A stretch of 64,000 nt of DNA from positions 27,064-91,063 of the forward strand of contig JAGMCR010000009.1 in the NCBI GenBank assembly GCA_023129115.1, written 5' to 3'. Shown piece by piece: positions 10,963 through 46,901 of the stretch. Under the pieces are notes generated by a model, which was not told the DNA's origin, searched no databases, and worked only from the letters and a program-made list of their open reading frames with translations. This stretch comes from Candidatus Iainarchaeum sp. (GTDB lineage Archaea > B1Sed10-29 > WALL01). Each line of letters starts with the position of its first letter. Position 1 is the first letter of the stretch. The position numbers and the translations under genes are program-made.

Positions 10963-11286
10963 TTAAATACCTTTGGCTTTCCGGATTGTCTTGAGCGTGC
11001 CGGACACGCTTAAAACCGTGATTCTCGCCTTTTCTCCCTTTATTTGGCCCACGAAGGCCAGGGCGATGAGGATATTGTCGAGCCATTCGTGGGTGCACCT
11101 GCAGATTCCAACACCCTTTTCGTACTCGATTATCGAGAAGTTGGCGCGTGCGTAGCCGTCCTCGCCGAACAGCGAGAGGACCGAGTTGCTGATGGCCTGG
11201 GAAACGTCTTTTTCAGTGGTGGGGCCGTGGACCTTGAACTCTATGTAGCGGCGCTTCTCGCGGAGAGTCGGGGGGAACGGCTTCAT
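10963..11286 (-). CDS. rnp2: RNase P protein Pop5
   Basis: PPTLREKRRYI and VSGTLK motifs. Confidence 0.9.
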   Translation of the reverse strand: MKPFPPTLREKRRYIEFKVHGPTTEKDVSQAISNSVLSLFGEDGYARANFSIIEYEKGVGICRCTHEWLDNILIALAFVGQIKGEKARITVLSVSGTLKTIRKAKGI

Positions 11287-11741
11287 TGCTGTGCCTCCAT
11301 CACGTACTCAGGCGCCTTTGAAATCGCCCACTTGGCCTGCTGGCGCGTCAGGCCGAGGAATACGCCGAATGCAATCAGTTGCTCGGGCGAGCGGAGCTCG
11401 AACTCGTCTTCCGCGCCGGAAGCAAGTATAATCCTGTTTTTCTTTTTGAGGCAGAGCTGAATCAACTTGCGGTAAGCCACAATCAAGCGAATTCTCTTGA
11501 ATTTACTTGCGTTCAAAAACTGGCGGAAAGTGACTGCGATGGCTATGTCGTTGTCCTTCGCCACTTGCAAAGTGGCGGTGTCGATTGTCATCTTGCCGCT
11601 GTCCATGGGGTCGAGGAGGACCTGGGTGCGCGAGCGCGCGATTTTTTTGTTGGCTTCCTCGGTCCCGCCCTTCGTGGACTTCACGGGCTTCGCTGGCGAA
11701 AACCCTTCTTCTTTCCTGAAGGCGAACAAGTCGTAATACAC
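11283..11741 (-). CDS. rnp3: RNase P protein Rpp30 (short form)
   Basis: LASGA..ELRSP, GLT..A..AISK.P; between rpl15e and pop5; start taken at GTG 11741. Confidence 0.8.
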   Translation of the reverse strand: MYYDLFAFRKEEGFSPAKPVKSTKGGTEEANKKIARSRTQVLLDPMDSGKMTIDTATLQVAKDNDIAIAVTFRQFLNASKFKRIRLIVAYRKLIQLCLKKKNRIILASGAEDEFELRSPEQLIAFGVFLGLTRQQAKWAISKAPEYVMEAQQ

Positions 11742-33481: not shown

Positions 33482-35944
33482 TTAAAGTGCCTCAATCGCA
33501 GATATGAGACTGTTCACAGCCGAAGCAGTGTCCGAAGCGGTGTAACCCGCGACGTACAGTGTGCTTCCGTCCAGCTCAGTCATCGTGGTGCCGGCACCAG
33601 TCAGCGTGCCCTCGGTCTTGCCGACCGCGAGCTTGTTGACGTAGTGGCCGCCGATAACGATGGCGTTGCCGGTTGGGCTGGTCGAGTCACTCACAACGAG
33701 GTTGCTGGAGACAGTACCGAAGGTAACTCCGGTCGCAACAGACTCCACGTCACAGGTGAGCTCGGTCACAGTCACATCAGAGGTCACGTCGTACGGGAAC
33801 GTCTTGGTTGTGTCGACGGTGAACGCACTCTCGCTCACGCCGGTTGTCTCGCTCACGCCAGGTGTCAGGGTTGCCCTGAGCTTCGCGTTTTCCTTGAAGA
33901 CCTCGACCTCAACAGTTGAGGAGTCGGTAGCCTCAAGGTTCGCGTAGGCAAGCTCTTCGTACAAGAACCTGTCTTCACCAGACTTGTCAACGCTCTGCCT
34001 GATGTAGTCGCTGAAGACTTCCCTGATGCCCTCGTAGTCGCCACTTGCAGTCACGTCGTAGACGAAGCCGTGTACCGCGCTTCCAGGCGCGCGATAGATG
34101 GCCGCCACTAAGGTGTTGTTCTCGTAGACATACTCATGGCCCCCAGTGGTGATGTTGGTATAGTTGGTCCAGTTCCACATTGGGCCGGGCCACCACAGGT
34201 CATAGTAGTCACTCGTGATGTTCTGGTCTGCACCACTCATCACGTAGATGACGTCTTCACTGCCGTAGTCCATGTAGTCGCCCGAGGTCAGAGAGATGTT
34301 GACGTTCTGTGTTCCCTGGTTGGTGCTGACGGCTATTTCTTCCCAGATAAGCTGTGCGCCAGCCGTTGTGTTGTCGTAGCCAAGGAAGAACGGTCCAACT
34401 GCATTGACTGCCGCCATCTCGTTGTCACCCTTCGCGTTGGCAGCTGTTATGTTGCCGTAGTTTGAGAGGGTGTACTTGATGTCGTTCAGCTTCACGTAAC
34501 TCTTCGCCTGGTTGGGGGCCGACCTATAGTAAATGGTGTCAATCTTGATTGGCTGTTCATTTGCTATAAAGTAGTCGCCCGACCTGAGCGGGAAGTAACC
34601 AATCTGGTTGATGGTGTGGTTGGTGAAGTTGTCCGCATAACCAACATAGGCGCTGGCATTCTCTGCCAAGAACGTCTGGCCGCGGTAGTCAGAGTCGTCC
34701 CACATGTCGACGGTGTACTGGTTCTCGTAGGTGTCCGAGTACGTCAGCTCGTCAATGATGTACCTGTCGCTCGACTCAGTGCCATGGATGGTAAACTTGT
34801 CCACCTCAATCTCGTTGCGGTCTGCGTTTGTTCCGGCGTACTTCAGGGTGAAGTACCCCTTCGGGCCGACAATCTCGGTCACCATATCGTTCTTCCCGTA
34901 GTTCTTGTTCAAGTAGAGGTCTACGTAGTTGGTGTTGGGTGGTGCGTTAACAATGTCGACCTTCCAGATGTCGCTGCCGGGGAACTTGTCGTTGTCAATT
35001 AGCTTCAGCAGCTCGCCGCCAACGCGGAGGGTTGCCGAGCCGCCCTGTCCAGGCGTGTAGGACTTCTGGACCGACTGCAGGTAGGTGTAGAAACCACCCT
35101 GGGTCGCGTCCTGGTTGTTGCCTGTGTCGAGCTGCGTGCTCACCGGGCTGGTAAGGTCGCCGCCGCTCACGGTCACTGTTGCATAACCAACGTTGACCAC
35201 GCCGGTTTCGTCCAGGCTCGCGCTGTCGAGCGTGACCGTGTAGGTCAGGTCGCCGACAGTCACGTCAGTGCTCTGTCCGATACCGAGGCTGACTTTCTCG
35301 CCCTTGACCAGGTGCATCTCGTTGGACGTCATCTTGTTCACGACATACGTCTCGCCGAGGAACACAATCTCGAGAGTCTGGTTCAGCTTGTTGTCCGAGT
35401 ACGGGAAGTTCTTGATAAAGTCAAACCTGTACTTTACCGCCGGGCTGCCGGTGTCCTCAAAGTAGACACCGTGGTGGTCCTTGTCCTCCTCGTACTGCAG
35501 GGTCACGGCATTGCTCACGTCCACGCTTTCCTTGTAGTCGTATTCCAGGTTGTTGAAGGTAAACGTGCCCTTGTGCATGCCGTGGGCTTCACCCAGGGTC
35601 AAGGAGTCAATTGCTTCGTTGACAATGGTTCCGGTAACATCCTGATCCATATAGGTGCCTTCTGTCGGAACAGCGGAGGCGCCACTAACCTTCAGCTTGA
35701 CGGTTCCGGTCGCGTCGGGGGTAACTGCCCCGCCGGTCTCGACGTATGCCTTGCGACCAATCCTAGCGGCCAAGTTGCCCGCCAAAACAGCGTCGTCAAG
35801 GGAACCGACAACAATCTGAACATTGGTGTTGCCACTTACGTCCCAATAGAAGTCCTTTGCTGGCAGCGCAGCTAGAGCCGCACCGACAAGCAAAGCAGTA
35901 CCTGCCGCCACAGCAGCTGCTTTCTTTATGTTTAGAGACTTCAT
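33482..35944 (-). CDS. S-layer protein
   Basis: IKKAAAVAAGTALLVGAALA signal, IVVG..D N-terminus, IVIGGH.VN.L and LYVAGY.A.DT C-terminus; many sequons; GAGGTGA RBS. Confidence 0.88.
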   Translation of the reverse strand: MKSLNIKKAAAVAAGTALLVGAALAALPAKDFYWDVSGNTNVQIVVGSLDDAVLAGNLAARIGRKAYVETGGAVTPDATGTVKLKVSGASAVPTEGTYMDQDVTGTIVNEAIDSLTLGEAHGMHKGTFTFNNLEYDYKESVDVSNAVTLQYEEDKDHHGVYFEDTGSPAVKYRFDFIKNFPYSDNKLNQTLEIVFLGETYVVNKMTSNEMHLVKGEKVSLGIGQSTDVTVGDLTYTVTLDSASLDETGVVNVGYATVTVSGGDLTSPVSTQLDTGNNQDATQGGFYTYLQSVQKSYTPGQGGSATLRVGGELLKLIDNDKFPGSDIWKVDIVNAPPNTNYVDLYLNKNYGKNDMVTEIVGPKGYFTLKYAGTNADRNEIEVDKFTIHGTESSDRYIIDELTYSDTYENQYTVDMWDDSDYRGQTFLAENASAYVGYADNFTNHTINQIGYFPLRSGDYFIANEQPIKIDTIYYRSAPNQAKSYVKLNDIKYTLSNYGNITAANAKGDNEMAAVNAVGPFFLGYDNTTAGAQLIWEEIAVSTNQGTQNVNISLTSGDYMDYGSEDVIYVMSGADQNITSDYYDLWWPGPMWNWTNYTNITTGGHEYVYENNTLVAAIYRAPGSAVHGFVYDVTASGDYEGIREVFSDYIRQSVDKSGEDRFLYEELAYANLEATDSSTVEVEVFKENAKLRATLTPGVSETTGVSESAFTVDTTKTFPYDVTSDVTVTELTCDVESVATGVTFGTVSSNLVVSDSTSPTGNAIVIGGHYVNKLAVGKTEGTLTGAGTTMTELDGSTLYVAGYTASDTASAVNSLISAIEAL

Positions 35945-36137
35945 TTGTTTTTTCACCTCATGCATCTGTAAAAAGATTTACATCAAGGATAGAGCAAGAG
36001 CCCTACCCTTGGTGAGCATAAATCACACTCCATTTATAAACATATCGCTTTATTATCGTCATTTTGCGAATATTTGGGTTTAAAGGGGTGTTGCCTGTTT
36101 GATGGATTCAGACCTATATAAGCCTATTTAAAAGCCC

Positions 36138-37312: not shown

Positions 37313-38317
37313 TTACTTAAAAACGCCGGCAATCTTCTGCCCGCAGCTGTGGCACTTCCCCTTGTCCACGTGGCTTTCCAGCAGCGCGAAGCCGTGCCGC
37401 TTTATCAATGCCTCGCCGCAGTTGGGGCAGTGCGTGTTCTCGAACGGGTCGCCGGGATAAGTGTTGCCGCAGTACACGTACTTCACGCCGCTCTCGAGCG
37501 CGATTTCCCTTGCCTTTACGAGCGTCTCGCGCGGGGTGGGGTTGGTGTTCCGCATCTTGTACGCGGGAAAGAACGCGGAGAAGTGGAGGGGCATGTTTGG
37601 GTCGAGGTCGTGCACGAACTCCGAGATTTGTAGTATGGACGCGTTGTCGTCGTTCTGGCCGGGGATGATGAGGTTGGTCACCTCGACCCAGGTCTTGTTC
37701 CGCTTCATTCTTTTTATTGAGTCGAGGACGTGCTGCATCTCGACGCCGCCGCACACTTTTTTGTAGAACTCTTCGTTGCCCTTTACGTCGACGTTGGCGG
37801 CGTCCAATTCCTTGTAGTCCTTGAGCATTTCTTTGGTCATGTAGCCGTTCGTGACGAAGACGTTCTTGATTTTTTGTTTGTGCGCGAGCACGCTGGTGTC
37901 CTTGGCGTACTCGTAGAAAATCGTTGGCTCCGTATAAGTGTAGCTGATGCTTGGTGTTTTGTACTCGCCCGCCAATCGCACGACTTCACTTGGCGGGACC
38001 TCGCGCTGCGGCCCGGCCTCCCACGCGGCCTGGCTGATTTCCCAGTTCTGGCAGTGCTGGCAATGCAGGTTGCATCCCACAGTCGCGATGCTGAGGGTTT
38101 CGGTGCCCGGCAAAAAATGAAACAGCGGCTTTTTTTCGATGGGGTCCGTGTTGACCGAGCATGGCTTGGCGTACGTCATTGCGTACAGGGTGCCGCGGAT
38201 GTTCTCGCGCACCTGGCAGTTGCCCCTGCCGCCCTCGGGGATTTTGCACCGCCGGTTGCACAGGCTGCACTGGACGGCCTTGTCCTTGAGCTTTTTGTAT
38301 AGGTACGCTTCTTTCAC
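37313..38317 (-). CDS. AmmeMemoRadiSam-system radical SAM enzyme (PFL-activase-like)
   Basis: DPIEKKPLFHFLPG, CNLHCQHCQNWEISQ, YTYTEP; start taken at GTG 38317. Confidence 0.92.
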   Translation of the reverse strand: MKEAYLYKKLKDKAVQCSLCNRRCKIPEGGRGNCQVRENIRGTLYAMTYAKPCSVNTDPIEKKPLFHFLPGTETLSIATVGCNLHCQHCQNWEISQAAWEAGPQREVPPSEVVRLAGEYKTPSISYTYTEPTIFYEYAKDTSVLAHKQKIKNVFVTNGYMTKEMLKDYKELDAANVDVKGNEEFYKKVCGGVEMQHVLDSIKRMKRNKTWVEVTNLIIPGQNDDNASILQISEFVHDLDPNMPLHFSAFFPAYKMRNTNPTPRETLVKAREIALESGVKYVYCGNTYPGDPFENTHCPNCGEALIKRHGFALLESHVDKGKCHSCGQKIAGVFK

Positions 38318-38340
38318 GCGAGAGACAAAGCGCCCCGCCG

Positions 38341-38385
38341 ATATAAAGGTTTTGTGCAAAAATAATGCAAGGGTTTTATATAGTG
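38341..38385. promoter_or_regulatory. Divergent TATA boxes for the radical SAM gene (-) and the his leader/operon (+)
   Basis: atataaa at 38341 (TTTATAT on minus) and TTTTATATA at 38374, each roughly 25-35 nt from a start codon. Confidence 0.6.
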
Positions 38386-38416
38386 GGAAAGCCGCAATAG
38401 TAGCTACGTGATAGCG

Positions 38417-38711
38417 ATGAAAGGCGATTCACTTCACAAGGGCATGGAAAGTTAGGCTGGACAAGAAGTTCAGGCTAGTTCTGCCTTTGGAAGCGAGGGA
38501 GTCGCTTGGAATCACGGACGAGGTTCTTGTTGTTTTTGACGGCAAAGCGGTAGCCATAACCAATTCGAAGGGCGAGAGCGGGAGAGCTATTTCAAAGAAT
38601 GTTGTTGAGTGCGGCTCGGGTAGTGTAACGGCTGGCACAGTAGGTTGTGGTCCTGCTAGAGCGGGTTCGACTCCCGCCCCGAGCCCTAAACGAGGTGGTG
38701 AAGATGATTAA
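38417..38711 (+). CDS. his leader ORF1: AbrB/MazE/SpoVT-like protein, apparently requiring a +1 frameshift at CTT-CAC (38432-38437)
   Basis: 0-frame MKGDSLHKGMES* (38417-38455); +1 frame TRAWKVRLDKKFRLVLPLEARESLGITDEVLVVFDGKAVAIT...EDD* has no canonical start before the AbrB motif. Confidence 0.7.
38613..38685 (+). tRNA. tRNA-His(GUG) or tRNA-His-like element
   Basis: G-1 + GCTCGGG/CCCGAGC + C73; D arm GTGT/GCAC; GTAGG-TTGTGGT-CCTGC; GCGGG-TTCGACT-CCCGC; CCA not encoded. Confidence 0.88.
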
Positions 38712-38866
38712 GGGTGTTTCACTTCACCAAAGCCTACTTTCTGGAGACGCAAGGCTCGGCAGCCCTCATAGCTGAAGCAGTCATTCTCAGGAATGGCATT
38801 GTTTGCAATGTAGAGATTATTGTTAATGGTTCAATGCGGGGCAAAGCAGAGGTGAGTTTTTCATGA
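38704..38866 (+). CDS. his leader ORF2, putative +1 frameshift at CTT-CAC (38722-38727), coupled to hisD
   Basis: GAGGTG RBS; 0-frame MIKGVSLHQSLLSGDARLGSPHS* (38704-38775); +1 frame TKAYFLETQ...AEVSFS* ends in ATGA overlap with the hisD start. Confidence 0.6.
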
Positions 38867-40035
38867 ATGAAAAAGTTCAGGGAATTATCCTGGATGTTCG
38901 GGAGAACGGCGACGCAGCTATTCGCAAGTATGCCAGGCAATTCGACGGCGTTGAGATGGACTGTCTGGAGGTAACAAAAAAAGAAATCCGGGAAGCGTAC
39001 GCCGCCTTAAGCGAGAAAGAATTGGCTGCGATAAAAAAAGCCGCGTCAAACATCAAGTGGTTTGCAGAGAAGCAGAAGCCAAAGGAGTGGATGGAAGAGA
39101 GGGAGGGGATGCTCCTCGGCCAGATAGTGAAGCCGCTTGACTCTGTGGGCGTGTACGTGCCCGGCGGGAATTATCCACTGCCGTCCTCGGCCCTCATGGG
39201 CGTGATACCGGCGAAGGTGGCTGGCGTAGGGGAAATTGTCGTGTGCTCTCCAAAGGCAAGGCCGGCGGTCCTGGTGGCGGCCGACATTGCCGGCGCTGAC
39301 AGGATATTCAGGATAGGGGGAGTCCAGGCAATAGCTGCAATGGCGTATGGCACAGAAAGCGTTCCAAAGGTAAGCAAGATTGTTGGGCCTGGGAACGCCT
39401 ACGTGACCGCAGCCAAAAAACTGTTGTTCGGCGAGGTCGGGATTGACATGCTCGCGGGGCCGACCGAGGTCATGATAATTGCCGACGAAAACGCGAACCC
39501 AAAGTACATCGCAGCCGACATGCTCGCGCAGATGGAGCACGACACGAATGCGGAAGCGATTCTGGTCACGACATCAAAGGAAGTTGCTGCAGAAGTGGAG
39601 AAGCAGCTCGAAAGGCAGCTGGAAACGCTTTCGACAAGCGGGATAGCGAGCGAGGCAAAAAAAGAGATAATCGTTGTTGGGAACCTGGGCGAGGCGTTTG
39701 AGCTGGCGAACGAGCGTGCGCCGGAGCACCTCGAGATAATGATTCCGGATGAGGGGCTGCTGGAAAAAGTGAGGAACGCTGGGGCAGTCTTCATCGGCGA
39801 GTACAGTGTGGAGGCTGGGGGCGATTACGCCACTGGCCCCAACCACGTTCTGCCGACTGGCGGCTTTGCAAAAGCAAGGGCGGGCCTTTCGGTCATGGAC
39901 TTCGTGAAAATGCCAAGCGTCCAGATTGTTTCCAAAGAAGGGCTGGAGAACTTGAGGGAAACCGTTGGGACACTGGCGGACATGGAGGGATTGGAGGCCC
40001 ACAAAAAATCAGTGGAGGTGAGGTTCGATGGGTAA
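38863..40035 (+). CDS. hisD: Histidinol dehydrogenase
   Basis: GVYVPGG, GPGNAYV, IDMLAGPTE, APEHLE, GDYATGPNHVLPT. Confidence 0.96.
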   Translation: MNEKVQGIILDVRENGDAAIRKYARQFDGVEMDCLEVTKKEIREAYAALSEKELAAIKKAASNIKWFAEKQKPKEWMEEREGMLLGQIVKPLDSVGVYVPGGNYPLPSSALMGVIPAKVAGVGEIVVCSPKARPAVLVAADIAGADRIFRIGGVQAIAAMAYGTESVPKVSKIVGPGNAYVTAAKKLLFGEVGIDMLAGPTEVMIIADENANPKYIAADMLAQMEHDTNAEAILVTTSKEVAAEVEKQLERQLETLSTSGIASEAKKEIIVVGNLGEAFELANERAPEHLEIMIPDEGLLEKVRNAGAVFIGEYSVEAGGDYATGPNHVLPTGGFAKARAGLSVMDFVKMPSVQIVSKEGLENLRETVGTLADMEGLEAHKKSVEVRFDG

Positions 40036-41647
40036 GAAACCAAGAAAGTGCATTGAGGCGTTGAAGCCGTACGTATGCGCCAGAAGCCTTTTCAAAAAAG
40101 GCGTGATGATGGACGCAAACGAGAACTCGATAGGCTCAGCCGTAAGCAATGGGCTAAACAGGTACCCGGACCCGGCATGCAGTGAACTGAAGAATGCTTT
40201 GTCGGAATACGTTGGTGTTCCCGCTGAAAACATATTTGTGGGGAACGGCTCGGACGAATGCATTGACCTCTTGGTCAAGTGCTTTGTGGAGGCGGACGAG
40301 AACGTGGTGGTCCTCGAGCCGACGTATGCAATGTACCGGGTCGCCGCAGAGTCCTATGGCGTTGAGTACCGGAGTTGTTTGCTTGACGAGGGCTTCCAGA
40401 TAGACTTCGCGGAATTGGAAGGGATTGTTGACCGCAAGACCAAGCTGGTCTTCTGCTGTTCCCCGAACAACCCGACCGGCAATAGTTTGGAGAGTGTGCT
40501 TGAGGTGGCGAAGAGGCTTGACGCGATTGTCGTGGTGGACGAGGCATACGCCGAGTTCTCGGGAAAGGGCCTGGCCGCTGACGCCGTGGGCTATGACAAC
40601 CTGGTTGTGCTCCGGACCTTTTCAAAGGCGTGGGGGCTTGCTGGCGCGAGGGTCGGCTACTTGGTTGCCGCCAAAAGGATTGTCGAGTGCCTGGACAAGG
40701 CCAAGCTCCCTTACAACGTCAGCGCTGTCTCGCAGCGGCTTGCGCTGGGCGCGCTCAAGAACAAAGGCAAAATGCTCGCGATGGTGGAAGAAATAACCAG
40801 GGAGCGGGAGAGGATGGCGCAGGAGATTCGCCGGATGGGGGGCGAGGCCTTTGCGTCAGAAGCGAACTTTGTTTTGTTCAGGTTTAACAAGAATGCCAGG
40901 CAGATACAGGAAAGGCTTGCACGCAAGGGCATCGTGATAAGGGACAGGTCAGGGCTGCCAAGAACAGGGAATTGCCTGAGGGTGACTGTCGGGGGAAAAA
41001 GTGAAAACGATGAGTTCCTGAAGCGGCTTGGGTTGGCTGTCGCCGATGCAGTCATCTTCGATATTGACGGCGTGCTTGTTGATGTGTCCAGCTCTTACAG
41101 GGAAGCAATCCTGCGGACAGTGGAGTGGTGGGGGGGACAGGCAACGAATGGCGACATCAGCCGGCTCAAGGGCTTGGGATTCAATAACGATTGGGACGTC
41201 ACGTATGCGCTCGCGAAAAAAACTACGGGCGTGGACCGGGGCGACCCGGATTACTCCCTGCTGAAGCAAAAGTTTCAGGAACTCTACCTCGGTGGGCTCA
41301 TAGACAAAGAAAAAAAGATTGTCAAGCCGGAGATGCTGGACAGGTTAGTGGGTTATAGGCTTGGCATCGCCACCGGCAGGCCAAGAGCCGAGGCACTCTA
41401 CTGCCTGAAGGGCTTCATCCCGAAATACTTCAGAGAGGGGTGTATAGTGGCGCTCGAGGACTGTGGGAAAGAAAAGCCGGACCCCACACCGCTGCTCAAG
41501 GCAAAGAAAGCACTGGGGTGCAAGGCGCCAGTGTATGTCGGGGACACTGCAAGTGATGAGCTCGCGGCAAAGGCAGCGAACATGCCCTGCATCATTGTTG
41601 GCAGGGACATCGAGGACGTTAACGAATTACCGGAGGCAATGGGATGA
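40028..41647 (+). CDS. hisC: Histidinol-phosphate aminotransferase fused to a C-terminal HAD phosphatase
   Basis: NRYPD, GNGSDE, SPNNPTG, RTFSKAWGLAG.R; then FDIDGVLVD, TGRP, KPDP, VGDT..D. Confidence 0.93.
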   Translation: MGKKPRKCIEALKPYVCARSLFKKGVMMDANENSIGSAVSNGLNRYPDPACSELKNALSEYVGVPAENIFVGNGSDECIDLLVKCFVEADENVVVLEPTYAMYRVAAESYGVEYRSCLLDEGFQIDFAELEGIVDRKTKLVFCCSPNNPTGNSLESVLEVAKRLDAIVVVDEAYAEFSGKGLAADAVGYDNLVVLRTFSKAWGLAGARVGYLVAAKRIVECLDKAKLPYNVSAVSQRLALGALKNKGKMLAMVEEITRERERMAQEIRRMGGEAFASEANFVLFRFNKNARQIQERLARKGIVIRDRSGLPRTGNCLRVTVGGKSENDEFLKRLGLAVADAVIFDIDGVLVDVSSSYREAILRTVEWWGGQATNGDISRLKGLGFNNDWDVTYALAKKTTGVDRGDPDYSLLKQKFQELYLGGLIDKEKKIVKPEMLDRLVGYRLGIATGRPRAEALYCLKGFIPKYFREGCIVALEDCGKEKPDPTPLLKAKKALGCKAPVYVGDTASDELAAKAANMPCIIVGRDIEDVNELPEAMG

Positions 41648-42219
41648 AAGTTGAAGTGGAAAGGAACACAACGGAAACGCAGGTTGAAGTAAAGCTGGAC
41701 ATCAATGGGACAGGAGAAAGGAGGATAGACACGGGCGTTGGGTTCCTGGACCACATGCTTGAGTTGTTCGCGAAGCAAGGGCTTTTTGACCTGGAGGTGA
41801 AGGCCACTGGGGACCTAAGGGTCGACGACCACCACACTGTCGAGGACGTCGGGATTGTGCTGGGCCAGGCGTTCAGGAAAGCGATTGGCGACAAGATAGG
41901 CATTGGGAGGTACGGCTACTTTGTCCTGCCAATGGACGAATCGCTTGCAATGTGCGCCATTGACCTTTGCGGGAGGGGCTCGCTTGTGTTCAACGCAGAA
42001 TTCGAGAGGGAGCGGGTCGGCGACTTGAGCACTGAATTGGTCTATGACTTTTTCAAGGCGTTCGCGGACAACTGTGGCGCAAGCGTGCACGTGAAAGTGT
42101 TCTACGGGCGGAACGAGCACCACAAGATAGAGGCAATCTTCAAGGCGTTCGCAAAAGCGATGCGCATGGCCTGCGAAATTGAAGGCGGAGGGATTCCGAG
42201 CACGAAGGGGATGCTATGA
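41644..42219 (+). CDS. hisB: Imidazoleglycerol-phosphate dehydratase
   Basis: FLDHML, DDHHTVED, NEHHKIEA, PSTKG. Confidence 0.96.
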   Translation: MKVEVERNTTETQVEVKLDINGTGERRIDTGVGFLDHMLELFAKQGLFDLEVKATGDLRVDDHHTVEDVGIVLGQAFRKAIGDKIGIGRYGYFVLPMDESLAMCAIDLCGRGSLVFNAEFERERVGDLSTELVYDFFKAFADNCGASVHVKVFYGRNEHHKIEAIFKAFAKAMRMACEIEGGGIPSTKGML

Positions 42220-42806
42220 TTGCAATAGTTGACTATGGCATGGGAAACATTAGGAGTGTTGAAAAGGCTCTGCAGAAAGCCGGGGCAGAAGTAGTGGTAA
42301 CCAGCGATGCCGAAGCAATTCGGGAGGCGGATGGCGTCGTGGTGCCGGGCGTGGGTGCGTTCGACAGCGCGATGAAGAGGCTGGGCCCGTTCAGGGAAGC
42401 AATCCTTGGCTCGATAGAAGACGGAAAGCCTTTCCTCGGCATTTGCCTCGGGATGCAGGTGCTGGTCGAAAAAAGCGAGGAGGGAAAGGAGCCCGGGCTG
42501 GGGGTTGTGAAAGGAAGGGTCGTGAGGTTCCGTGGCGTGAAGACGCCGCATGTTGGGTGGAACCAGCTGGAGATGGAGCCTGGCTGCCCGCTGTTCAAGG
42601 GGATTCCCCAGGAGAGCCGGGTTTACTTCGTGCACTCCTATTACGCGGTCCCGGGCGAGCAGGTGATTGCAAGCAAAACAGAGTACGGTACAATGTTCTG
42701 CTCGGCGATATGGAAAAAGAACGTGCTGGCGACGCAGTTCCACCCCGAAAAAAGCGGCGAAGCCGGGCTGAAGATGCTCAAGAACTTTGTGGAGTTGGTT
42801 GAATGA
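42216..42806 (+). CDS. hisH: IGP synthase glutaminase subunit
   Basis: DYGMGN, PGVGAF, GICLGMQ, QFHPEKS. Confidence 0.96.
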   Translation: MIAIVDYGMGNIRSVEKALQKAGAEVVVTSDAEAIREADGVVVPGVGAFDSAMKRLGPFREAILGSIEDGKPFLGICLGMQVLVEKSEEGKEPGLGVVKGRVVRFRGVKTPHVGWNQLEMEPGCPLFKGIPQESRVYFVHSYYAVPGEQVIASKTEYGTMFCSAIWKKNVLATQFHPEKSGEAGLKMLKNFVELVE

Positions 42807-43468
42807 AAGTGATTCCGGCAATAGACATCATGGACGGAAAAGCAGTGAGGCTTGTGCAGGGAGACCCAAACAAAAAGAGGGTTTACGGAGAGCCTGCAGA
42901 GGTAGCGGAAGCCTTTGCGGAATGCGTTGACTTGGTGCATGTGGTTGACCTTGACGGCGCGTTCGAGGGCAGGCCGGTGAACACGGGCACAATCAAGAAG
43001 CTGTCGGGAATCGTGCGCGTGCAGGTGGGCGGCGGAATACGCTCTGAAAAAGCATTGGCGGAAATCCTGGAGTGCGCAGCGAAGGCAGTCGTAAGCACGT
43101 GGGTGCCAAAGGAACTCAGCCGGGTAGTTGTCTCGCTCGACGTGCGGGACGGGGTGGTCTTCACCAGGGGATGGAAGGAAAGGACGGATGTGGACGTGGT
43201 CGAGTGCGCGAGGCGCCTGGAGTCACGGGGCTGCAAAGAACTCATAGTTACGGACATTGATTCGGACGGGACGCTGGAGGGGCCGAACATGGAGTTAATC
43301 AAAAGGGTCGTGCGTTCGGTGGAAGTGCCTGTGACAATCGCTGGTGGAATCAGTTGCCTGGGGGACATAAGAAAGATTAAAGAGACAGGGGCGGCGGCTG
43401 TGATAATCGGGAAAGCCTTGTACGAGAAAAAGTTTGGCCTGGAGGAGGCGATTGAGAGTGCTCGCTAA
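42803..43468 (+). CDS. hisA: ProFAR isomerase
   Basis: [39 protein letters not shown]. Confidence 0.95.
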
Positions 43469-44195
43469 AAGAATCATTCCTTGCCTGGACGTTGACTGCG
43501 GAAGAGTGGTGAAGGGAACAAAGTTTGTTGAGCTGAAGGACGCGGGCGACCCCGTGGAACTGGCCAGAAGGTATGATAAAGAAGGGGCGGACGAGCTGGT
43601 TTTCCTGGACATAACCGCATCCTCTGACAAGCGGGGGATTATGCTTGACGTCGTGAAAAGGGTTTCCGAGCAAGTGTTCATACCGTTCACTGTTGGGGGC
43701 GGCATAAAAACAATTGAGGAAATCAGGGAGATACTGCGGAACGGTGCGGACAAGGTTTCCCTGAACACTGCCGCGATTGAGGACCCTGCTTTGGTGAAAA
43801 GCGCTTCAGAAGAGTTTGGCTCGCAGTGCATCGTGGTCGCGATAGACGCGAAACGGGGCAGTGTCTACAAGTACGGCGGGCGGGAGGACACTGGCATGGA
43901 TGCAGTGCAGTGGGCGAGGCGGGCCGAAGCGCTTGGGGCAGGGGAAATCCTCTTGACGAGCATGGACGCCGATGGCACGAGAAAAGGGTTTGACCAGGAA
44001 TTGACGAGGGCCGTGGCAGGGGCGGTGAACATACCCGTAATCGCGTCGGGAGGGGCGGGGACGCCCCGGGATATTTACAATGTTTTGGAATATGCGGATG
44101 CTGCGCTGGCCGCGGGCATCTTTCACTATGGCGCTTACTCCATTCAGGAAGTGAAGGACTACTTGAGGAAAAAAGGAATGCAGGTGAGATTATGA
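43458..44195 (+). CDS. hisF: IGP synthase cyclase subunit
   Basis: [40 protein letters not shown]. Confidence 0.96.
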
Positions 44196-44758
44196 AGGTA
44201 AAGTTTGATGAGAAGGGCCTGGTGCCCGTGATTGCACAGGACTGCGAGACGAACAAGGTGCTGATGCTGGCATACGCCAACAAGGAAGCGCTGGACAAGA
44301 CAGTGCAAACTCGGGACGCGTGGTACTGGAGCAGGAGCAGGAAACAGCTCTGGAGGAAAGGCGAGGGCAGTGGCAACACTCAAGCGGTTGTGGACATACT
44401 GAGTGACTGCGACAGCGATGCACTGATTTACCGGGTGAAACAAAATGGCGTTGCGTGTCATTTGGGGAATTACTCGTGCTTCAGGACAATCCTTGACGAA
44501 GTCTACGGTGTAATCCAGGACAGGGCGAGGAACCCGACGCCTGACTCATATACTTGCAAGCTAATCCGGGACAAAGAAAAAATCCTTCGGAAGATAAACG
44601 AGGAGGCGTACGAGCTGGTGCTGGCCGCAAAGGAAGGGAACAAAAAAGAAATCGTGTGGGAAACAGCTGACCTTCTTTACTTCGTGCTTGTGCTTCTCGC
44701 GGTGAATAACGTAGGGCTGGGCGATGTATGGAGTGAACTGAGGAGGCGAAGAAAATGA
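44192..44758 (+). CDS. hisIE: Bifunctional PR-AMP cyclohydrolase/PR-ATP pyrophosphatase
   Basis: WSRSR..LWRKGE.SG, DCDSDAL, ACHLG..SCF; SYT..L, KI.EEA.E, E.ADLLY. Confidence 0.94.
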
Positions 44759-45609
44759 TTAAGGTTGTTCTGCCAAAGGGCAGGCTTTTCAAGGAAGTGG
44801 TTAAGCTCCTGGGGGAAGCTGGCTACACGCTCAAGGGGACGGAAAGGTCTTACCGGCCTGCCATCAATGACCCGGAGATAGAAGTCAAGATAATGAAGGC
44901 CCGGAACATCCCGAAGCTTGTGGAGCTTGGCTCGCATGACTTGGGCATCACGGGATACGATTGGGTTGTGGAAAACAAGGCAGACGTAGCCGAGCTTCTG
45001 GACCTTGGCTATGGGCGGGTGCGGCTGGTCGCTGCTGTCCCAAAAAACGGGTGCAAAAGCATTCAGGGCCTCAAAGGGAAAAAGGTTGTGGCTGCATCGG
45101 AGTACCGGAGCATCACAGAGCAATACCTTGAAGAGAACGGCATTGAATACGAGTTCATCCAGTCGTTTGGCGCGACAGAAGTATTTCCGCCGGAAGATGC
45201 CGACATAATAATTGAGAACATAGAGACCGGCGAGACGCTCAAGCAGAACAACCTGGCCGTGATAGGCACGCTCATGGAATCGAGTGCGAGGCTGATAGCG
45301 AACAAAGAAAGTTTGGAAGACGGCAGGAAAAAGAAGAAGATAGAAGACATAACCATGCTGATTAACAGTGCGCTGATTGCGAGGGAACGGGTTTTCCTTG
45401 AGATGAACGTGTCGGAAGAAAAGCTGGAGGCTGTTTGCAAGCTCTTGCCGGCAATGAAGTCCCCAACAATAAGCAAGCTGTACAGCGACGAGGGCTATGC
45501 GATAAAAGCGGCGGTAAAGAAAAACGACGTGCCTGCATTAATCCCAAAGCTAAAGCAGGCGGGAGCGACCGACATACTGGAATTTGAGCTGCGGAGGGTT
45601 GTGGCATAG
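44755..45609 (+). CDS. hisG: ATP phosphoribosyltransferase (long form)
   Basis: [34 protein letters not shown] regulatory domain. Confidence 0.95.
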
Positions 45610-45647
45610 GGAAAGAATAAAAACAACGCATTCAAAAGGTGATTGGC

Positions 45648-46901
45648 ATGTTTCAAACAGTGCGCGGCATGAGGGACCTCGAGCCCGAGGAAATGCGGAA
45701 GAGGCAGTTCTTCTGGGACAAGGTCAGGAAGGTTTACGAGAGCTACGGGTTTGCGCGGCTCGAGACGCCTGCCGTGGAAAGCTTTGACTTGTTGTCTGCC
45801 AAGGGAGGCGGCGGCCAGGAAATCAAGAAAGAAATCTATTACTTCAAGGACCAGGGCGACAGGGAATTGGGGCTGCGGTTCGACATGACCGTCCCAACCG
45901 CGCGCTACGTCGCGAGCGACGCGTCGCTGCCGAAGCCGTTCAAGCGGTATTGCTACGGCCAGGTGTGGAGGTACGACCGGCCGCAGGCCGGGCGCTACCG
46001 CGAGTTCACGCAGTGTGATATCGATATCTTTGGGATTGCGACGCCCGCTGCGGACTTTGAAATCTTTGCGGCGACTGTCGACGCGTTCCTCGCGCTCGGG
46101 TTCAAGAAATTTTTCATCCGCGTGAACAACAAGAAGTTGCTGGCGGGGCTGATGGACGCTGCGGGAATCAAGGACGACAAAAAGCTTGACGCGTGGCGCG
46201 CGATTGACAAGCAGGACAAAATTGGGTGGGGCGGCGTCGAGGAAGAACTGAAGAAAAGGAAAGTCCCCAACGGAAAGAAAGTGATTGCGCTGATCAAGGG
46301 CAACAAAATCACGAAAGAGATTACTGCCTCGGAAGCGGGCGCAAAAGGCAAGGAAGAAATGGACGCGTTCCTTGCCTTGTGCAAGGCCGCGAAAATGGAG
46401 AAGTACGTCAAAGTCGACTTGTCTCTCGTGCGGGGACTGGAGTATTACACTGGGATTACTTACGAGGTCATGGCCGGCGGAAAGTGGTCGTGCGGCGGCG
46501 GGGGGAGGTACGACGACTTGATAAAACTGGTTGGGGGGCAGGACACGCCCGCAGTGGGGATTTCGTACGGCGTGGACCGCGTGATTCAGTTAATGGGCGA
46601 GGCGGGCCTGTTTCCAGAGCTGGGGGGCACGAAGTGCTTCGTGGCCGCGGTGAACGACTCGGTGCGTTTAAAGGCGGCTGAGATAGCTGCGGGGCTGAGA
46701 AAAGAGGGGGTTTCAGCCGAGACCGACTTGGCGGGAAGAGCCCTCCGCAAGCAGTTCGACTACTGCAATTCCCGGGGCATCCCCTACTGCGTGATTGCCG
46801 GGCCCAAGGAGCTGAAAGACAAGCAGGTGGTATTGCGGGACATGGGGACTGGCAAAGAGGAGAAGGTCAACCTCGCCTCGCTCGCCGGCAAGCTGAAGTG
46901 A
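45648..46901 (+). CDS. hisS: Histidine--tRNA ligase
   Basis: LRFDMTVP, RPQAGRYREFTQ, RGLEYYTG, GGGRYD. Confidence 0.96.
   Translation: MFQTVRGMRDLEPEEMRKRQFFWDKVRKVYESYGFARLETPAVESFDLLSAKGGGGQEIKKEIYYFKDQGDRELGLRFDMTVPTARYVASDASLPKPFKRYCYGQVWRYDRPQAGRYREFTQCDIDIFGIATPAADFEIFAATVDAFLALGFKKFFIRVNNKKLLAGLMDAAGIKDDKKLDAWRAIDKQDKIGWGGVEEELKKRKVPNGKKVIALIKGNKITKEITASEAGAKGKEEMDAFLALCKAAKMEKYVKVDLSLVRGLEYYTGITYEVMAGGKWSCGGGGRYDDLIKLVGGQDTPAVGISYGVDRVIQLMGEAGLFPELGGTKCFVAAVNDSVRLKAAEIAAGLRKEGVSAETDLAGRALRKQFDYCNSRGIPYCVIAGPKELKDKQVVLRDMGTGKEEKVNLASLAGKLK

Follow-up and report, generated by a model that had tools for sequence, protein, structure and literature searches.

Upstream of the histidine biosynthesis genes of Candidatus Iainarchaeum sp., an archaeon known from metagenomes only, a tRNA-His(GUG) gene is nested within a same-strand open reading frame (ORF) that is entered, as we propose, by a +1 frameshift. 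The DNA analysed here, termed the window, comprises 64,000 nucleotides of contig JAGMCR010000009.1 (positions 27,064 to 91,063 of the forward strand), and coordinates are those of the window unless stated otherwise. An earlier note, made from the sequence alone, had already located this tRNA within the open +1 frame of a short leader ORF. In our preferred reading, which we credit with about an even chance of being right, a real, co-transcribed tRNA-His resides in a frameshift ORF resembling that of bacterial prfB, with a hungry His codon setting off the shift, which in turn is coupled to the histidine genes downstream. Comparison with related loci suggests a conserved archaeal unit consisting of a short leader ORF, a +1 ORF that ancestrally would have encoded an AbrB-like protein, tRNA-His and histidine genes. 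The elements of the window locus are the following.

38374–38389, + strand: putative archaeal promoter, a TATA-like TTTTATATA overlapping the conserved box ATAGTGGGAA; read from the sequence, the same TATA and AGTGGGAA box preceding the modules of relatives
38408–38412, + strand: Shine-Dalgarno (SD)-like GTGAT, 4 nt ahead of the ORF1 ATG; complementary to the 16S rRNA 3' end of relatives, GTGAT-N4-ATG occurring also in genome G003
38417–38455, + strand: ORF1, short 0-frame leader MKGDSLHKGMES, stop TAG; its Leu-His pair is found in the homologous short ORFs of every related locus
38432–38437, + strand: putative +1 shift site A, CTT (P site) and CAC (His, A site); CTT-CAY is invariant in 19 modules
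38433–38612, + strand: AbrB/SpoVT/MraZ-like domain in the +1 frame, without ATG, GTG or TTG of its own; dN/dS, structure model, family search
38433–38711, + strand: +1 ORF A, composed of the AbrB-like part, the tRNA and a trailer; its stop TAA (38709–38711) overlaps the ORF2 start region ATGATTAA
38613–38685, + strand: tRNA-His(GUG), G-1 to C73, wholly within +1 ORF A; ARAGORN, Rfam, sequence, covariation, fold
38704–38775, + strand: ORF2, second short ORF MIKGVSLHQSLLSGDARLGSPHS, a paralogue of ORF1 (direct repeat 38416–38437/38706–38727)
38722–38727, + strand: putative +1 shift site B, CTT CAC; module comparison
38723–38866, + strand: +1 ORF B (FTKAYFLETQ...), whose TGA overlaps the hisD ATG (ATGA); in-frame GTG at 38714
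38863–45609, + strand: his operon comprising hisD, a hisC-HAD fusion, hisB, hisH, hisA, hisF, hisIE and hisG; Pfam
45639–46901, + strand: hisS, histidyl-tRNA synthetase (HisRS), last gene of the cluster; Pfam tRNA-synt_His (2.9e-48) and HGTP_anticodon

Throughout, module A denotes ORF1 with +1 ORF A, and module B denotes ORF2 with +1 ORF B. The contigs of two DNA runs are identical from 38350 to 38900, with zero indels, and the frame offsets are therefore not assembly errors.

A genuine tRNA-His gene in the leader of the his operon

The element at 38613–38685 is a genuine tRNA-His gene, a conclusion held with much more confidence than the full mechanism proposed below. ARAGORN calls tRNA-His(gtg) at 38614–38686 as the single tRNA of the window, and an Rfam scan of 38300–38900 assigns RF00005 to 38614–38685 with 52 bits (gathering score 29). 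The His identity set is complete when read from the sequence, with G-1 at 38613, the anticodon GTG at 38647–38649 and C73 at 38685; G37 is present and the acceptor stem is GCTCGGG/CCCGAGC. No CCA is encoded, the tRNA being followed directly by CCT. The minimum-free-energy fold of 38600–38700 is the cloverleaf. Some positions are unusual, namely U28-G42, G21 and A15/A48. The 10 other tRNA-His genes aligned carry G15 together with C48 or a compatible base, as well as A21, as compared to A15/A48 and G21 in the window copy, which thus departs from the canonical tertiary nucleotides (R15-Y48, A21).

Covariation attests to the structure. In an alignment of 11 tRNA-His genes, 99.6% of the cells pair and 10 of 21 pairs are doubly changed, a result reached by none of 500 shuffles. 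Compensatory changes distinguish the copies of the window, G004 and G003, which belong to different genera, in the acceptor stem, the anticodon stem and the T stem. A covariance model of the tRNA-His of the phylum was run over 31 genomes of the latter, and the next-best matches were inspected with ARAGORN. The window genome has a second, canonical tRNA-His (contig C15, c18132–18207), equipped with a TATA box and a T-rich trailer; with the covariance model the two copies score alike (86.3 bits for the window copy and 86.1 bits for the canonical copy). Extra stand-alone copies were found only in G000 and G003. In 11 relatives (G004, G013, G014, G015, G017, G020, G021, G022, G023, G024 and G027; assemblies 77–98% complete), no tRNA-His other than the embedded or hisS-linked copy was found. 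The deviations A15/A48 and G21 of the window copy may reflect relaxed constraint after duplication of the tRNA-His gene.

Stand-alone tRNA-His copies have a TATA box ending ~25–30 nt upstream and a T-rich trailer. Inspection revealed no obvious promoter or terminator belonging to 38613–38685 itself, no archaeal promoter model having been run; the sole A/T-rich stretch nearby, TATTTCAA (38588–38595), ends 17 nt before G-1 and lies within the conserved ISKN codons of the preceding domain. The descriptive part of the earlier note stood up well: the cloverleaf with its identity elements and deviations, the lack of an obvious promoter, the TAG of ORF1 ending at 38455, the ORF2 start located 18 nt past the tRNA (ATG at 38704, C73 at 38685) and HisRS as last gene of the cluster were all recovered, and its question whether the genome holds a second canonical tRNA-His is answered in the affirmative. 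Pop5 and Rpp30, which it had placed in the window, are encoded at 10975–11250 and 11316–11672, respectively.

The same Rfam scan (cmscan, E <= 1, 38300–38900) detected neither a T-box nor any other family besides the tRNA and a sub-threshold mascRNA match; the latter, with 19.7 bits as compared to a gathering score of 42.5, reflects the tRNA shape once again and was discarded.

Relatives also carry introns at unusual places in their tRNA-His genes (loci L021, L023, L020, L026 and L024). T-loop introns are present in G013, G017 and G016 (~105 nt in G016) and a D-loop intron in G024, and the G022 gene has a canonical 37/38 intron; several of these intron-bearing genes are missed by ARAGORN and, at gathering score, by Rfam. 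In G001, a contig start (L037/L010) bears a tandem ~110-nt unit upstream of a stand-alone tRNA-His. Each unit opens with the first 19 nt of the tRNA, and the same fragment recurs on a second contig; the tandem unit may be real or may have arisen during assembly.

An AbrB-like +1 frame lacking a start codon

The frame phased (G-1,G1,C2) extends without a stop from 38421 as far as its TAA at 38709–38711 and reads the tRNA as GSGSVTAGTVGCGPARAGSTPAPSP. Its first part codes for a domain of 60 residues, which extends to 38612 and abuts the tRNA directly. Pfam matches of this domain are sub-threshold (MraZ, E 0.0035; MazE, E 0.039). An AlphaFold2 model has a mean confidence (pLDDT) of 74.7, and its top Foldseek matches are AbrB, SpoVT, Sso7c4 and MraZ, the best E-value being only 0.037. 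A HMMER profile search of 1.84 billion representatives collected a family of small proteins with 42 members and the consensus M-x-(H)FTW..RLDKK.RLVLP..AR..LGI...KPNGE.G..ISKN..EV. Approximately 15 of 30 family sequences read carry tails that, as judged by eye from the proteins, are derived from tRNA; the peptides encoded by the tRNA include GSGSVTAGTVGCGPAR. Full-length members also occur in four other small-genome lineages, as revealed by a search of 401 archaeal genomes. One further locus, L007, emerged from a metagenome scan with the AbrB alignment; it has no tRNA and possesses its own ATG. A scan of genome contigs recovered just two loci, both of them already among those compared here.

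Comparison of the window domain with the second copy in G004, a member of another genus, yields a dN/dS (ratio of nonsynonymous to synonymous substitution rates) of 0.18, the differences being mostly in third positions. A second start-less pair, G013 and G017, gives 0.17. These values indicate that the AbrB/SpoVT-like frame is a real gene under purifying selection and suggest that the +1 ORF is translated. In 13 of the 19 modules described below, the long frame nevertheless has no ATG, GTG or TTG downstream of the promoter. These are module A of the window, both G004 copies, G003, G013, G017, G022, G020, both G147 modules, G166, G357 and the hisG module of G223.

A short ORF with CTT-CAY ahead of the +1 frame

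In 19 modules, an ATG or GTG followed by 2–6 codons and then by CTT-CAY is found in the -1 frame relative to the long ORF. The start of the short ORF is ATG (GTG in G017), its length is 9–30 codons, and CTT-CAY, coding for Leu-His, is located among codons 4 to 8. The short ORFs begin with MKGDSLH in module A of the window, MQGDRLHH in G003, MDCLH in G013, MGECLH in G022, MSGSLH in G014, MRAGGLH in G025, MGDSLH in G020, MEMKGGLLH in G147 and MIMASEYLH in G223. ORF1 contains one His codon and ORF2, a diverged repeat of ORF1 (MIKGVSLHQS...), contains two. The Leu codon of the modules is always CTT, which accounts for ~21% of the Leu codons in the window genome. Three loci (G021, G023 and G027) have GTT-CAY instead of CTT-CAY, and each of them has an in-frame ATG. 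The window genome encodes tRNA-Leu(GAG), which pairs with UUC about as well as with CUU. When the pattern is defined strictly (ATG, then 2–6 codons and CTT-CAY in a 0-frame that is short, together with a +1 frame that is long and start-less), the 1.25 Mb assembly contains a single instance, that of the window locus, as compared to 0–3 matches for control codon pairs.

SD-like sequences are located 3–7 nt ahead of the start of the short ORF and match the 16S 3' end ...GATCACCTCCT of the relatives G004 and G015, from which the anti-SD was taken since the 16S 3' end of the window genome is not in the assembly. A second, G-rich SD-like hexamer (GGCGAT, GGTGTT, GGGGAG, GTGGAT and others) is located 3 nt before CTT; by inspection, 4–5 of its 6 bases match the SD of the relatives' 16S rRNA. 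The predicted trans-frame junction of module A reads ...GDSL-TRAWK.... The CTT-CAY of the 19 modules corresponds to the slippery CUU-Y and slow A-site codon of prfB-type frameshifts and would represent a variant that employs a sense His codon.

The +1 frame runs through the tRNA towards the next gene in most tRNA-linked loci

In the phylum, the conserved order is promoter, short ORF, +1 ORF, tRNA-His and hisS, and HisRS is the downstream gene in all 10 loci tested. In the window, the second CUU-CAC module and the his biosynthesis operon are interposed between tRNA-His and hisS. With the query used, hisD was not found in the five other genomes of the family. An operon at this place seems to be a speciality of the window genome within its family.

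The earlier note had proposed to test whether the cloverleaf and a frame free of stops are retained together in homologous leaders, and in 11 of 15 tRNA-linked loci the +1 frame is indeed open over the entire tRNA, introns included. Nine loci (window, G003, G004, G013, G017, G022, G014, G020 and G147) share the codon phase (G-1,1,2). Phase (2,3,4) is used in G021 and G030, whose tRNAs have G9 and are thus free of UAG at positions 8–10. The linker between the end of the domain, ..E(V/C), and G-1 measures 0 to 6 codons, and three kinds of tRNA intron are read through. The stop codon of the +1 ORF overlaps the next ATG as ATGA in module B of the window (hisD), in G017, G014, G020 and G030 (hisS), in G147 (hisD) and in G025 (hisS, no tRNA between), or is at most 11 nt away from it (module A of the window, G003, G004 and G021).

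The AbrB domain has decayed in G003, G020 and G021; even so, their frames stay open all the way from the shift site to hisS, across the tRNA. When tested by dinucleotide shuffles, the probability of an open linker is 0.019 in G020, 0.16 in G003 and 0.052 in G021, and the corresponding values for the trailer are 0.60, 0.21 and 0.115. These loci suggest that the act of translation is under selection and not the protein alone. The idea of the earlier note that frameshifted ribosomes run through the tRNA fits these observations, with +1 frames ending on the next start and remaining open where the domain has decayed.

Two genomes outside the phylum extend the picture. In G147, the AbrB-like ORF has its own stop and is overlapped by a second short ORF, MSKGELLHL; the +1 frame of the latter traverses tRNA-His and ends with ATGA at hisD (Pfam 9e-126). 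G223 has a second short ORF, MKNSAECLH..., whose +1 frame is occupied by hisG itself (Pfam 4.6e-46). A canonical start is absent from this hisG ahead of its conserved KGRL motif, and the motif aligns to residue 8 of the HisG encoded in the window. By virtue of these arrangements the module is tied to hisS, hisD and hisG in different lineages.

G004 has further peculiarities (locus L002, minus strand, ~1447–1465 and ~1724–2620). Its first AbrB-like copy forms an in-frame fusion with an Asp/Glu racemase, and a further CTT-CAC, located in the C-terminal codons of the racemase, leads into the second AbrB copy. In addition, the final 18 nt of tRNA-His recur 45 nt downstream.

How the switch may operate

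We infer the following chain of events. The tRNA-His would be co-transcribed with the genes downstream from the TATA/AGTGGGAA promoter at 38374–38389, and ribosomes would initiate at the AUG of the short ORF. At CUU-CAC, peptidyl-tRNA-Leu(GAG) would re-pair one base forward on UUC as long as a shortage of charged tRNA-His leaves the A-site His codon unoccupied. Ribosomes that have shifted would synthesize the AbrB-like domain, traverse the whole tRNA, terminate on the start codon of the next cistron and reinitiate there. In the window, this next cistron would be ORF2, where a second CUU-CAC module would repeat the test before its frame ends as ATGA with hisD, placing two modules in series. In relatives, shifted ribosomes would reach hisS directly. 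Translation of the histidine genes would thereby become coupled to a low level of His-tRNA-His. Ribosomes that do not shift would halt after 12 codons, allowing the tRNA to fold and to be excised by RNase P and tRNase Z, and the downstream message would be severed. Translation would thus compete with tRNA processing.

In its complete form, this would constitute a two-way switch: plentiful His-tRNA-His would lead to excision of mature tRNA and a silent message, whereas under scarcity the +1 slip would keep the tRNA unfolded and uncut and allow ribosomes to reach hisS, hisD or hisG. We put this forward as a tentative model, possible but on balance doubtful.

Observations that weigh against a regulatory frameshift

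Several observations speak against the frameshift reading and have to be weighed with it. First, the overlap of tRNA and ORF is in the window genome alone no more than chance: at 57% GC, a same-strand frame is open across 25 of the 40 tRNAs called by ARAGORN, and stop-to-stop frames of at least 96 codons hold nine of the 40. The significance of the overlap therefore rests on its conservation in relatives, where the loci of the 31-genome sample are themselves related, so that counts do not represent independent events. Second, reading through is not obligatory, because the ORF stops before or inside the tRNA in four of the 15 loci (7–15 nt ahead of it in G023, G024 and G027; at U8-A9-G10 in G016). 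Third, six of the CTT-CAY modules (G014, G016, G024, G025, module 1 of G223 and module B of the window) need no shift, because an in-frame GTG or ATG is present, and several of the start-less loci have a possible weak start in the form of ATT or ATC, two codons ahead of Phe. Fourth, CTTCAC also encodes the x-Phe-Thr N-terminus of the protein family, and part of its conservation could therefore be at the protein level. The SD-like elements are imperfect, and a hairpin sequestering the SD at the ORF2 start (GGUGAAG/CUUCACC stem) is predicted but no better than in shuffles (z -0.4) and was not used as evidence. A cut by RNase P at G-1 would break the ORF, and reading through thus needs ribosomes that outrun processing. 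Finally, the gene following the tRNA in G004 is an aromatic/histidine ammonia-lyase, whose induction on histidine shortage would be counter-intuitive.

Alternative explanations

Many of these points are accommodated by an ordinary mixed tRNA-mRNA operon with tRNA punctuation, in which the AbrB-like protein would start at ATT/ATC or GTG, the message would be cut at G-1 before ribosomes come, the open frame would be passive and no regulatory frameshift would exist. We judge this rather unlikely. In its favour, the gene order with hisS is conserved, and the embedded tRNA, being the sole tRNA-His in 11 relatives, must mature efficiently. The in-frame and near-cognate starts, the four loci with earlier stops and the commonness of frames open over tRNAs in the window genome all agree with it, and tRNA-like elements in longer Haloferax transcripts are processed by RNase P and tRNase Z according to passages of PMC4946936. 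What it leaves unexplained is the SD-preceded AUG in the -1 frame together with the invariant CTT-CAY in 19 modules, as well as G022 and the second copy of G004, which have AAT and AGT, respectively, at the place where a near-cognate start would be needed. Nor does it account for frames that stay open through decayed AT-rich linkers, for frames ending as ATGA with the next gene, or for the hisG of G223 that has no start at all.

The embedded tRNA could also be a cis-acting mimic, as the earlier note had considered. It would then act mainly as a leader structure bound by HisRS or cleaved to set his operon expression in the manner of the E. coli thrS operator. The second tRNA-His with its own TATA box and terminator, the tertiary deviations of the window copy and its position next to the translation start of ORF2 would be in line with such a role. 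However, cloverleaf, G-1, C73 and GUG are all intact, the copy scores equal to the canonical one, its homologues are the only tRNA-His found in 11 relatives and show compensatory stem changes, and hisS is located 7 kb downstream in the window. A mere mimic or HisRS decoy is thus improbable.

Still less probable is a relic attachment (att) site, in which tRNA-His would mark the edge of a his island acquired by integration or transfer and the frame overlapping it would be meaningless. The lack of a detectable hisD in five other family genomes and the repeated tRNA end in G004 are what could be expected in this case. But no repeat of the 3' part of the tRNA occurs elsewhere in the window, even when up to 3 mismatches are allowed, the only tyrosine integrase of the genome (PF00589) is encoded on another contig (C12), and the GC content of the his genes (0.53–0.57) matches that of the genome without any shift. 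Moreover, the linkage of the tRNA to hisS is older than the his insertion, and G147, outside the phylum, shares the tRNA-His-hisD arrangement as well as the frameshift module. Least probable of all is a chance overlap beside a decaying pseudogene, the AbrB-like frame being dead and its start and stop lost: the absent start codon, the sub-threshold Pfam matches and the statistically unremarkable overlap would suit it, but dN/dS values of 0.17–0.18 in two independent pairs, 42 family representatives with tRNA-derived tails in about half of those read, and the same start-less design in several families and outside the phylum contradict it.

The earlier note had itself listed circumstances that would count against its interpretation. 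Of these, a sole tRNA-His does not apply, as a second gene exists, no promoter of the tRNA's own is obvious, and stop codons in relatives are found in four of 15 loci but not in the remaining 11. Overall, the comparison supports the leader frame and its co-conservation with the cloverleaf and is compatible with reading through, and it does not support a mere mimic, a HisRS decoy or an att site.

Some further candidates were examined and set aside. Significant attenuator hairpins were not found (38400–38470, z +0.98; 38686–38760, z -0.40 relative to shuffles). Transcriptional slippage was dismissed by inspection, the A-runs being just 3 nt long and unconserved. Reading TAG as a sense codon gives a peptide unlike AbrB.

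Comparison with known systems

The closest known system to the proposed frameshift is the autoregulatory +1 frameshift of bacterial prfB. The prfB site consists, as outlined in passages of PMC12421855, of an SD-like element, a 3-nt spacing and CTT-T. In both systems, a short 0-frame ORF precedes a functional +1 ORF that has no start of its own, and the P-site CTT is followed by a pyrimidine (CTTT in prfB, CTTC in the window); a purine-rich SD-like element 3 nt upstream may be a further common trait, being putative in the window. In both, the A-site codon would be slow when the product of the regulated gene is scarce, as is proposed for the window module. They differ in that the A-site codon is a sense His codon here and a stop codon in prfB. 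Further, modules of the window type would reach the regulated genes by termination-reinitiation coupling, except in G223, where hisG is the shifted ORF itself. The window system is archaeal, has a tRNA gene inside the shifted ORF and is known from sequence only.

Frameshifting at hungry codons occurs in E. coli under limitation of aminoacyl-tRNA and at CUU-AGG-C of yeast Ty1. As in these cases, a P-site tRNA-Leu would slip by +1 on CUU while the A site awaits a scarce aminoacyl-tRNA. Passages of PMC5009743 and PMC8211752 treat such shifting as a side effect of starvation whose natural use is unclear; the window module, in contrast, would serve as a dedicated sensor placed before the cognate synthetase and the genes of biosynthesis. 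According to the latter source, a 2021 review (PMC8211752), programmed frameshifting has been shown in cellular archaea in just one case, a -1 frameshift.

With respect to histidine, two bacterial systems invite comparison. The enterobacterial his operon has a leader ORF with a run of His codons, which senses charged tRNA-His by ribosome pausing and acts on terminator and antiterminator hairpins. A short leader ORF with a His codon likewise precedes the his biosynthesis genes of the window, but it has one such codon (two in G003) rather than a run, no terminator or antiterminator hairpins were detected in the window leader, and the proposed read-out is a change of frame with translational coupling and not termination of transcription. 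T-box riboswitches of Firmicutes hisS genes and his operons turn on HisRS and histidine synthesis when charging of tRNA-His is low. The regulatory logic would be the same as proposed here, but the leader RNA of a T-box binds the tRNA in trans, whereas the window encodes the tRNA in cis as a gene.

Transcripts that contain tRNAs are well known from mitochondrial tRNA punctuation and from the tRNA-tufB operon of E. coli, and the thrS operator is a mimic of the tRNA-Thr anticodon arm bound by ThrRS. The latter resembles the loci of the relatives in that a tRNA-shaped RNA is located just upstream of the start codon of a synthetase, but the tRNA described here is complete with all identity elements, is the sole tRNA-His in many relatives and is probably no mimic. 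Passages of PMC4946936 describe tRNA-shaped elements in archaeal (Haloferax) transcripts that are cut by RNase P and tRNase Z, and PMC1920247 deals with t-elements of plant mitochondria, tRNA-like structures cut by the same enzymes to set mRNA ends. The window locus shares with these and with tRNA punctuation a tRNA structure within a longer transcript and a predicted cut by RNase P and tRNase Z. It differs from them in that a full and presumably functional tRNA gene lies within a conserved, apparently translated ORF of the same strand in a fixed codon phase.

Further features of the locus

The box ATAGTGGGAA (38380–38389) directly follows the TATA element and is conserved before the module across families and even beyond the phylum (L002, L007, L020–L028 and L080–L082); ATAGTGGGA is present just twice in the genome. 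Judged by its position and conservation, this box may be an operator of the AbrB-like protein. In the window (37313–38359, - strand) and in G004, and apparently also in G022 (L002 and L024, upstream), the module has a radical-SAM gene as its divergent neighbour, and the shared intergenic promoter region may therefore be bidirectional. Within the his operon, hisC is fused to a HAD-family hydrolase in one 539-aa ORF (40028–41647; Aminotran_1_2 and HAD_2), which may represent a fused histidinol-phosphate aminotransferase/phosphatase. An 827-aa ORF at 33482–35965 (- strand) has a weak S_layer_C match (E 7.5e-05, under the curated cut-off).

Implications

How archaea adjust amino-acid biosynthesis and synthetase levels to supply is, to our knowledge, largely unknown, and we know of neither attenuators nor T-boxes found there. 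The arrangement described here was not found described in the literature that our search retrieved. A candidate prfB-like +1 frameshift, with a His codon in place of the stop, precedes HisRS, hisD or hisG in at least 15 small-genome archaeal genomes. The presumably functional tRNA gene in fixed codon phase within an ORF raises the question of how one RNA can serve both translation and processing by RNase P and tRNase Z. Being short (ATG, 3–5 codons, CTT-CAY), the module can be moved into reporters and could in principle be directed to other amino acids by a single codon change. If the two-way switch were true, it would give cellular Archaea their first programmed +1 frameshift. It would also be the first natural sensor of an amino acid to rely on a hungry sense codon and the first case of a tRNA gene in which translation gates maturation, and thus a new kind of gene control in archaea.

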